Assembly: GCF_003334815.1 (NCBI RefSeq)
Contig: NZ_QOWO01000024.1
Strand: one strand, 5' to 3'
DNA: 64,000 bases
Source of the DNA: Escherichia coli
GTDB lineage: Bacteria > Pseudomonadota > Gammaproteobacteria > Enterobacterales > Enterobacteriaceae
Below, one piece after another: positions 33,706-34,160 of this stretch. The notes below the pieces were generated by a model. The model was not told the DNA's origin. It did no database searches and was given only the letters and a program-made list of their open reading frames with translations. Within the stretch, counting starts at the first letter, position 1; every line of letters begins with the position of its first letter. Position numbers and translations under genes: made by a program.

Positions 33706-33740
33706 GCAGGATGGCGTTCATGCGCCATCCTGTCTCATAT
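33706..33740 (+). terminator. Hairpin terminator candidate downstream of glpQ
   Basis: 10-bp stem caggatggcg / cgccatcctg with 6-nt loop, followed by a moderately T-rich tract. Confidence 0.45.
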
Positions 33741-33946
33741 CAAATTTTTCCAATCGCCACTAATTGTTCCATGCACATTTGTAGTAAAAACAGTGGACTG
33801 CCTTCTACCGGCTTTTCTTTAGCCAGCAACGAAATCTGTCGATAGAAAGTTGGTTCGAGAGGAACGGAACACAATTCACCTGCAATGCTTTTCAGCGTTA
33901 ACTCTGGTTGTAAGGCGATGCCTAATCCCTGTCGAATAAAATTCAT
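33740..33946 (-). pseudogene. yfaH: LysR-family regulator C-terminal remnant (yfaH-like)
   Basis: 68-aa ORF resembling the C-terminal end of a LysR substrate-binding domain; only ~210 bp remain upstream before inaA, so the HTH domain is absent. Confidence 0.5.
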
Positions 33947-34160
33947 CGCTGTATCCGCCTGATTAAATTCACATTTTATCTGCTGGGCGCACTATTAGTG
34001 GTAGTGGCTGGTGGAATCTATGCGCTGCAAATGAAGGGTAAAAGCGGTGTCAAGCTAGTAGTGGCAAAAGAAATTCATTAATACGACACGTTTCATTAAG
34101 ATTTTCCTCAGGTAACCACCTATAGTCATTGTCGTTAATAAAAATGACAGGCGATAGGGT

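Follow-up and report, generated by a model that had tools for sequence, protein, structure and literature searches.

Deletion between short direct repeats, through replication slippage or illegitimate recombination, is a classic route of gene loss in enterobacteria. The closest described counterpart of the locus considered here is yfaH (b2238), a pseudogene of Escherichia coli K-12 that lies between inaA (b2237) and glpQ (b2239) (NC_000913.3, 2349687-2349893), and on which a literature search ('yfaH', 'b2238') returned incidental mentions only and no dedicated study.

In other E. coli strains (EC17GD31, WCHEC050613 and O157:H7 SS17) the interval between glpQ and inaA is filled by two complete genes, i.e. 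a LysR-type regulator of 292-299 amino acids on the minus strand and a divergently oriented MFS transporter of 396 amino acids on the plus strand, with 151 bp between them. According to Pfam, the regulator has an HTH_1 domain (residues 3-63, E = 1.2e-17) as well as a LysR_substrate domain (model positions 2-188, E = 1.5e-36), and the transporter has a full MFS_1 domain (E = 8e-46). As to the specificity of the two proteins, every NCBIfam equivalog match stayed below its cut-off; any work on this uncharacterised LysR-MFS pair has to use strains that have retained the genes, such as O157:H7.

The intact loci are not uniform. The LysR allele of WCHEC050613 (3874-4752 of that locus) is far removed from the other E. 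coli alleles (pS of about 0.8, 74% DNA identity at the 3' end) and stands beside an ordinary MFS allele, which suggests that part of the locus was imported by recombination. O157-type loci contain an extra segment of 1.7 kb between the glpQ terminator and the LysR 3' end (2166-3874 of the O157:H7 SS17 locus; also present in APEC E19057, NRZ99027-1 and JAIJJM010000334.1), which codes for a 356-aa protein that has no match in Pfam, NCBIfam, PADLOC or PHROGs. The gene for this protein also occurs together with the yfaH deletion, being frameshifted in APEC E19057 and split by IS1 in NRZ99027-1. JAIJJM010000334.1 is a 3.5-kb contig labelled 'MAG: Collinsella sp.', the proteins of which are 93-100% identical (amino acids) to those of the E. 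coli O157-type glpQ-hypothetical-LysR-MFS arrangement, and it is almost certainly a binning contaminant.

Remnants of a regulator and a transporter gene

The window, i.e. the whole stretch of 64,000 nucleotides of E. coli DNA that was analysed (contig NZ_QOWO01000024.1), has the gene order glpT, glpQ, a gap of 462 bp, inaA, yfaE, nrdB, nrdA. An earlier note on this DNA had pointed to a 68-codon frame between glpQ and inaA and read it as the very C-terminus of a LysR substrate-binding domain, most of the gene having been removed by a deletion, since the ~210 bp upstream could not hold the missing codons. The frame is indeed there, 41 bp past the glpQ stop (33698), and the distance to the inaA ATG (34161) amounts to 214 bp, which is too short for the missing codons. 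Positions 33735-34165 are identical to E. coli K-12 MG1655 at every base of the alignment, and the frame is the known and annotated K-12 pseudogene yfaH, with the same sequence (Table 1).

Frames as long as this one frequently arise by chance in the window, judging from the ORF list, so that the case for it lies in its homology and not in its length. The Pfam match of the 68-aa product to LysR_substrate is weak and sub-threshold (E = 0.0075; model positions 144-189 of 209) and unconvincing by itself; decisive for the LysR assignment was the comparison with the orthologous locus. Upstream of the ATG, the homology goes on for another 36 bp (12 codons), as far as 33982, and the extended frame shares 68 of 79 residues (86%, E = 1e-46) with positions 213-291 of the LysR regulator of EC17GD31, which is encoded at the same chromosomal position. 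In fact, the complete LysR (WP_000176733.1 and WP_000176738.1) and MFS proteins (WP_000660220.1 and WP_000660231.1) of EC17GD31 and O157:H7 SS17 are encoded at the very site of the window's remnants. The LysR similarity on which the earlier reading was to stand or fall is present, and what related genomes have at this site is an intact LysR gene, not a bona fide small gene.

Roughly half of the DNA 'upstream' of the 68-codon ORF belongs to a second remnant, on the plus strand, where the frame 33977-34078 agrees with the MFS transporter of EC17GD31 in 31 of 34 residues (91%, E = 5e-18; transporter residues 363-396). The earlier note was therefore right about the LysR tail and the deletion; it set the extent of the remnant too short, missed the MFS remnant altogether, and counted from an ATG that is secondary. 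In other strains, PGAP annotates the same DNA as two abutting pseudogenes, i.e. a partial LysR and a partial hypothetical gene (coordinates were taken from another strain's locus and converted, the coordinate in locus L001 plus 32149 being the window coordinate).

Little is left of either function. Pfam found no HTH_1 (PF00126) in the window product, and the LysR_substrate domain (PF03466, about 209 positions) is incomplete; gone from the remnant are the HTH domain, the greater part of the effector-binding domain, the start codon and the promoter, and two in-frame stops are found just upstream of the junction. As far as can be judged from its sequence, and with neither of the two domains complete, the window product is not a functional LysR-type regulator. 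The 12-helix core of an MFS protein is equally absent, since only the last 34 residues remain and MFS_1 spans residues 14-375 when the protein is complete; the MFS segment of the window is a remnant and not a transporter. The sole NCBIfam match of the 68-aa product is NF007272 ('hypothetical protein', an equivalog model; 164.8 bits). Residues 226-291 of the intact LysR are hit by the same model, from which it follows that this 'equivalog' merely describes a C-terminal fragment of LysR.

Table 1. Features between glpQ and inaA (window coordinates unless stated otherwise)
Feature	Position	Strand	Basis or remark
GC-rich hairpin with 12-bp stem, between the convergent 3' ends of glpQ and the LysR remnant	33706-33733	.	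RNA fold
LysR-family remnant, 80 codons plus stop (intact residues 213-292)	33740-33982	-	Homology; PGAP 'LysR family transcriptional regulator, incomplete, missing N-terminus'
68-codon ORF, yfaH (b2238)	33740-33946	-	ORF list and MG1655 annotation
Deletion junction, the one copy left of the 8-bp direct repeat TTTATCTG	33975-33982	.	Comparison with intact loci
MFS transporter remnant, final 34 codons and stop of a gene for a 396-aa MFS_1 protein	33977-34081	+	Homology; PGAP 'hypothetical protein, missing N-terminus'
inaA upstream region, putative promoter and leader	34082-34160	+	Conservation
Marbox-like site, best of the region	34083-34102		3 mismatches to the assumed consensus; lead only
TATAGT hexamer, after the marbox-like site	about 34121-34126		
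19-nt leader motif TGACAGGCG[A/G]TAGGGTATG, start codon included	34145-34163; EC17GD31 locus 5104-5122 and 6375-6393		

The deletion junction

Alignment of the window with the intact loci gives two blocks, which overlap at 33975-33987. In the intact loci of EC17GD31 and O157:H7 SS17, gapped alignment and exact-string search show two copies of TTTATCTG, 1879 bp apart, one in LysR codons 213-215 and the other at MFS codon 362, versus a single copy in the window. This implies a deletion of 1879 bp that took LysR codons 1-212 (most of the gene, as the earlier note had held), the 151-bp divergent promoter region shared by the two genes, and MFS codons 1-361, all of which the window lacks relative to the intact pair of these two strains. 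The same junction was found in all ten remnant-bearing sequences that were aligned (the window, K-12 and eight strains picked across 96.6-100% identity), and most of the private substitutions are common to them too, which argues for one deletion event. On the plus strand, the ORF list contains no start codon that opens a chimeric ORF of at least 30 codons.

Following these results, the ancestral glpQ-inaA interval contained a LysR gene (minus strand) and a divergent MFS gene (plus strand) with a shared promoter region of 151 bp, and in an ancestor of K-12-like E. coli the intervening DNA was lost, probably by illegitimate recombination or replication slippage between the two copies of TTTATCTG. 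Left over, tail to tail, are 80 codons from the end of the regulator and 34 from the end of the transporter, a pair that has neither promoter nor native starts, neither the DNA-binding domain nor the first 361 transporter residues. The terminator hairpin of glpQ and the upstream region of inaA seem to have remained untouched. It is thus highly probable that a single deletion of 1879 bp gave the region its present form, and that yfaH is a non-functional pseudogene fragment that drifts neutrally.

Selection on yfaH and its possible function

Between the window and the nearest intact E. coli alleles, pN/pS is 0.81-1.33, versus 0.08-0.15 for most pairs of intact alleles (78 alignable codons), values that are indicative but imprecise because the substitutions behind them are few (14-15 differences over the 78 codons). 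Ten codon changes are private to the remnant, nine of them nonsynonymous and one synonymous, and seven of the private replacements (Y216C, H220Q, P221A, I225M, S226N, L237Q and T/A244S) are located at residues that are invariant in six out of six intact orthologs. The ATG of the 68-codon ORF corresponds to codon 225, which is ATA or ATC (Ile) in all six of these orthologs; since it was the lineage-specific I225M that created the codon, this ATG is a product of decay and not an ancestral start. Stops occur in the 12 codons upstream of this Met in strains 2013C-3252, 103605, CUVM3 and NRZ99027-1. The LysR remnant thereby shows everything that defines a pseudogene, i.e. homology at the orthologous locus, an identifiable lesion and relaxed constraint (the last on small counts), and it appears to evolve neutrally.

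Whether yfaH could nevertheless be a bona fide small gene has to be considered, in which case the 68-aa C-terminal subdomain of the LysR effector fold would have gained a new promoter and a role of its own, such as interference with another LysR regulator. Nine of the ten remnant-bearing sequences have kept the ORF open, although this is expected for a short ORF at a divergence of at most 3%; the ORF has its new ATG at codon 225 and an NCBIfam equivalog model (NF007272), and its RNA responded to the cpxR background, being up 7.7-fold by qRT-PCR in a cpxR-deletion strain overproducing NlpE (PMC9600279). The qRT-PCR signal implies that the yfaH region is transcribed at some level, yet neither strand nor protein is established by that study, in which yfaH is listed as an 'uncharacterized protein'; expression studies that list it in this way are in fact reporting on a pseudogene. 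A functional gene is hard to reconcile with a pN/pS of about 1 and with replacements at residues that are invariant in the intact orthologs, nor would it be expected to carry the 1-bp deletion that causes a frameshift within the ORF in strain 2020S05-013-18. The native promoter has been deleted, and a consensus scan of 33650-34250 found no sigma-70-like promoter in its place. The ORF as such is furthermore missing in 43% of E. coli genomes, which have the intact gene or an empty spacer instead, the reference annotation is that of a pseudogene, and in MG1655 yfaH has been swapped for a Tc-resistance cassette that served as a linked transduction marker (PMC2714960). Neither purifying selection nor a start and expression signals of its own, which together would characterise a small-protein gene, were found, and a small gene is therefore very unlikely.

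It is very unlikely, too, that the 68-aa YfaH peptide, or an RNA that runs across the fused remnants opposite the inaA promoter, would be expressed under envelope stress and have a regulatory role. If it were true, the candidate effects would be a dominant-negative action on another LysR regulator or a modulated transcription of inaA, and neutral drift would then not fully account for the fact that about 57% of E. coli genomes have kept the remnant.

Distribution and polarity of the locus forms

A megablast of the spacer (a query of 601 nt) against 5426 complete E. coli genomes revealed that the locus is polymorphic. The remnant form, taken as at least 80% of the query in one place, is present in about 3105 genomes, and the intact form, with the deleted segment present, in 1233 (nearly complete in 1217). 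A further 1057 genomes have an empty form, with a glpQ-inaA spacer of 202 bp, which by difference leaves about 31 genomes in other states.

Outside E. coli, the order glpT-glpQ-LysR-MFS-inaA-yfaE is found in Escherichia sp. E1V33 and E. whittamii, LysR-MFS-inaA-yfaE in Escherichia sp. MOD1-EC7003 and one Pseudocitrobacter genome, and LysR-MFS-yfaE in two Kluyvera genomes. With the same pair near inaA/yfaE in other Escherichia, Kluyvera and Pseudocitrobacter, the intact pair is ancestral and the state of the window derived. The reverse polarity, in which the short form would have come first and an insertion of foreign DNA would have brought in the complete LysR and MFS genes of the O157 type, could draw on the polymorphism of the locus and on the third, empty form with its spacer of about 90 bp that matches neither of the other two, but it is effectively refuted by outgroup synteny (three other Escherichia lineages have the intact pair in the same surroundings, and other genera have it beside inaA/yfaE) and by the seamless frames, because an insertion cannot make two frames that run on seamlessly from 3' fragments on opposite strands. 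The 8-bp repeat that borders the missing segment on either side is, moreover, characteristic of a deletion.

The empty, B2-type spacer contains about 90 bp (about 1575-1668 in locus L003, and likewise in locus L006) for which short-word blastn gave no match to the intact locus or to the K-12 remnant. That this spacer is a mere further deletion of the window's form was rejected on account of these unmatched base pairs; a second deletion with filler DNA and an imported allele are the candidate origins. Insertions of IS1 within the locus were seen in single strains (NZ_CM128587.1 and NZ_CM142667.1), affecting both the remnant and the intact form, and show that erosion of the locus continues.

Flanking elements

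The hairpin between the convergent ends of glpQ and the LysR remnant folds at -22.5 kcal/mol (z = -6.08), which none of 200 shuffles equalled, and it is likely to act as a bidirectional terminator for both ends. A consensus scan of 33650-34250 for promoters and terminators flagged nothing; a simple terminator scan misses this hairpin because no T-run follows directly after it. Rfam gave a sub-threshold match to the sRNA RmaA at 33691-33790 on the plus strand, a stretch that includes the glpQ stop and the terminator hairpin as well as DNA antisense to the 3' end of yfaH. The match scores 24.1 bits versus a gathering score of 57 (E = 0.085), and it is probably due to chance.

On the other side, the 79 bp from the stop of the MFS remnant to the inaA ATG are conserved in all three forms of the locus (from about 34063 or 34080). 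The marbox-like site in this stretch was scored against an assumed marbox consensus and is a lead only, and the literature search did not turn up an experimentally mapped inaA marbox. As the upstream 79 bp have been kept in all three forms, with the marbox-like site within them, the deletion seems to have spared the control region of inaA.

The last 16 nt before inaA (34145-34160) are the first 16 of a 19-nt motif, the rest of which runs into the inaA start codon. The motif precedes both the MFS gene and inaA, and in intact loci it thus forms a near-perfect direct repeat that flanks the MFS gene. Both copies are kept in other Escherichia species, while none was found in the Kluyvera and Pseudocitrobacter loci with up to 3 mismatches. 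It may serve both genes as an element of translation initiation or regulation, or else go back to the way in which the gene pair was assembled.

Comparison with known gene losses

Compared with the annotation of K-12, in which yfaH consists of the 207-bp ORF only, the homologous LysR remnant reaches further, to 33982, where an unnamed MFS remnant abuts it. With regard to its origin, the locus is like the classic short-repeat deletions, in that both of its breakpoints have an 8-bp direct repeat, one copy of which is kept, and there is nothing unusual about it: yfaH is an ordinary deletion pseudogene. What the locus offers is a textbook case of gene loss by short-repeat deletion, in which both truncated neighbours can still be read and the intact, remnant and empty states segregate within E. 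coli.
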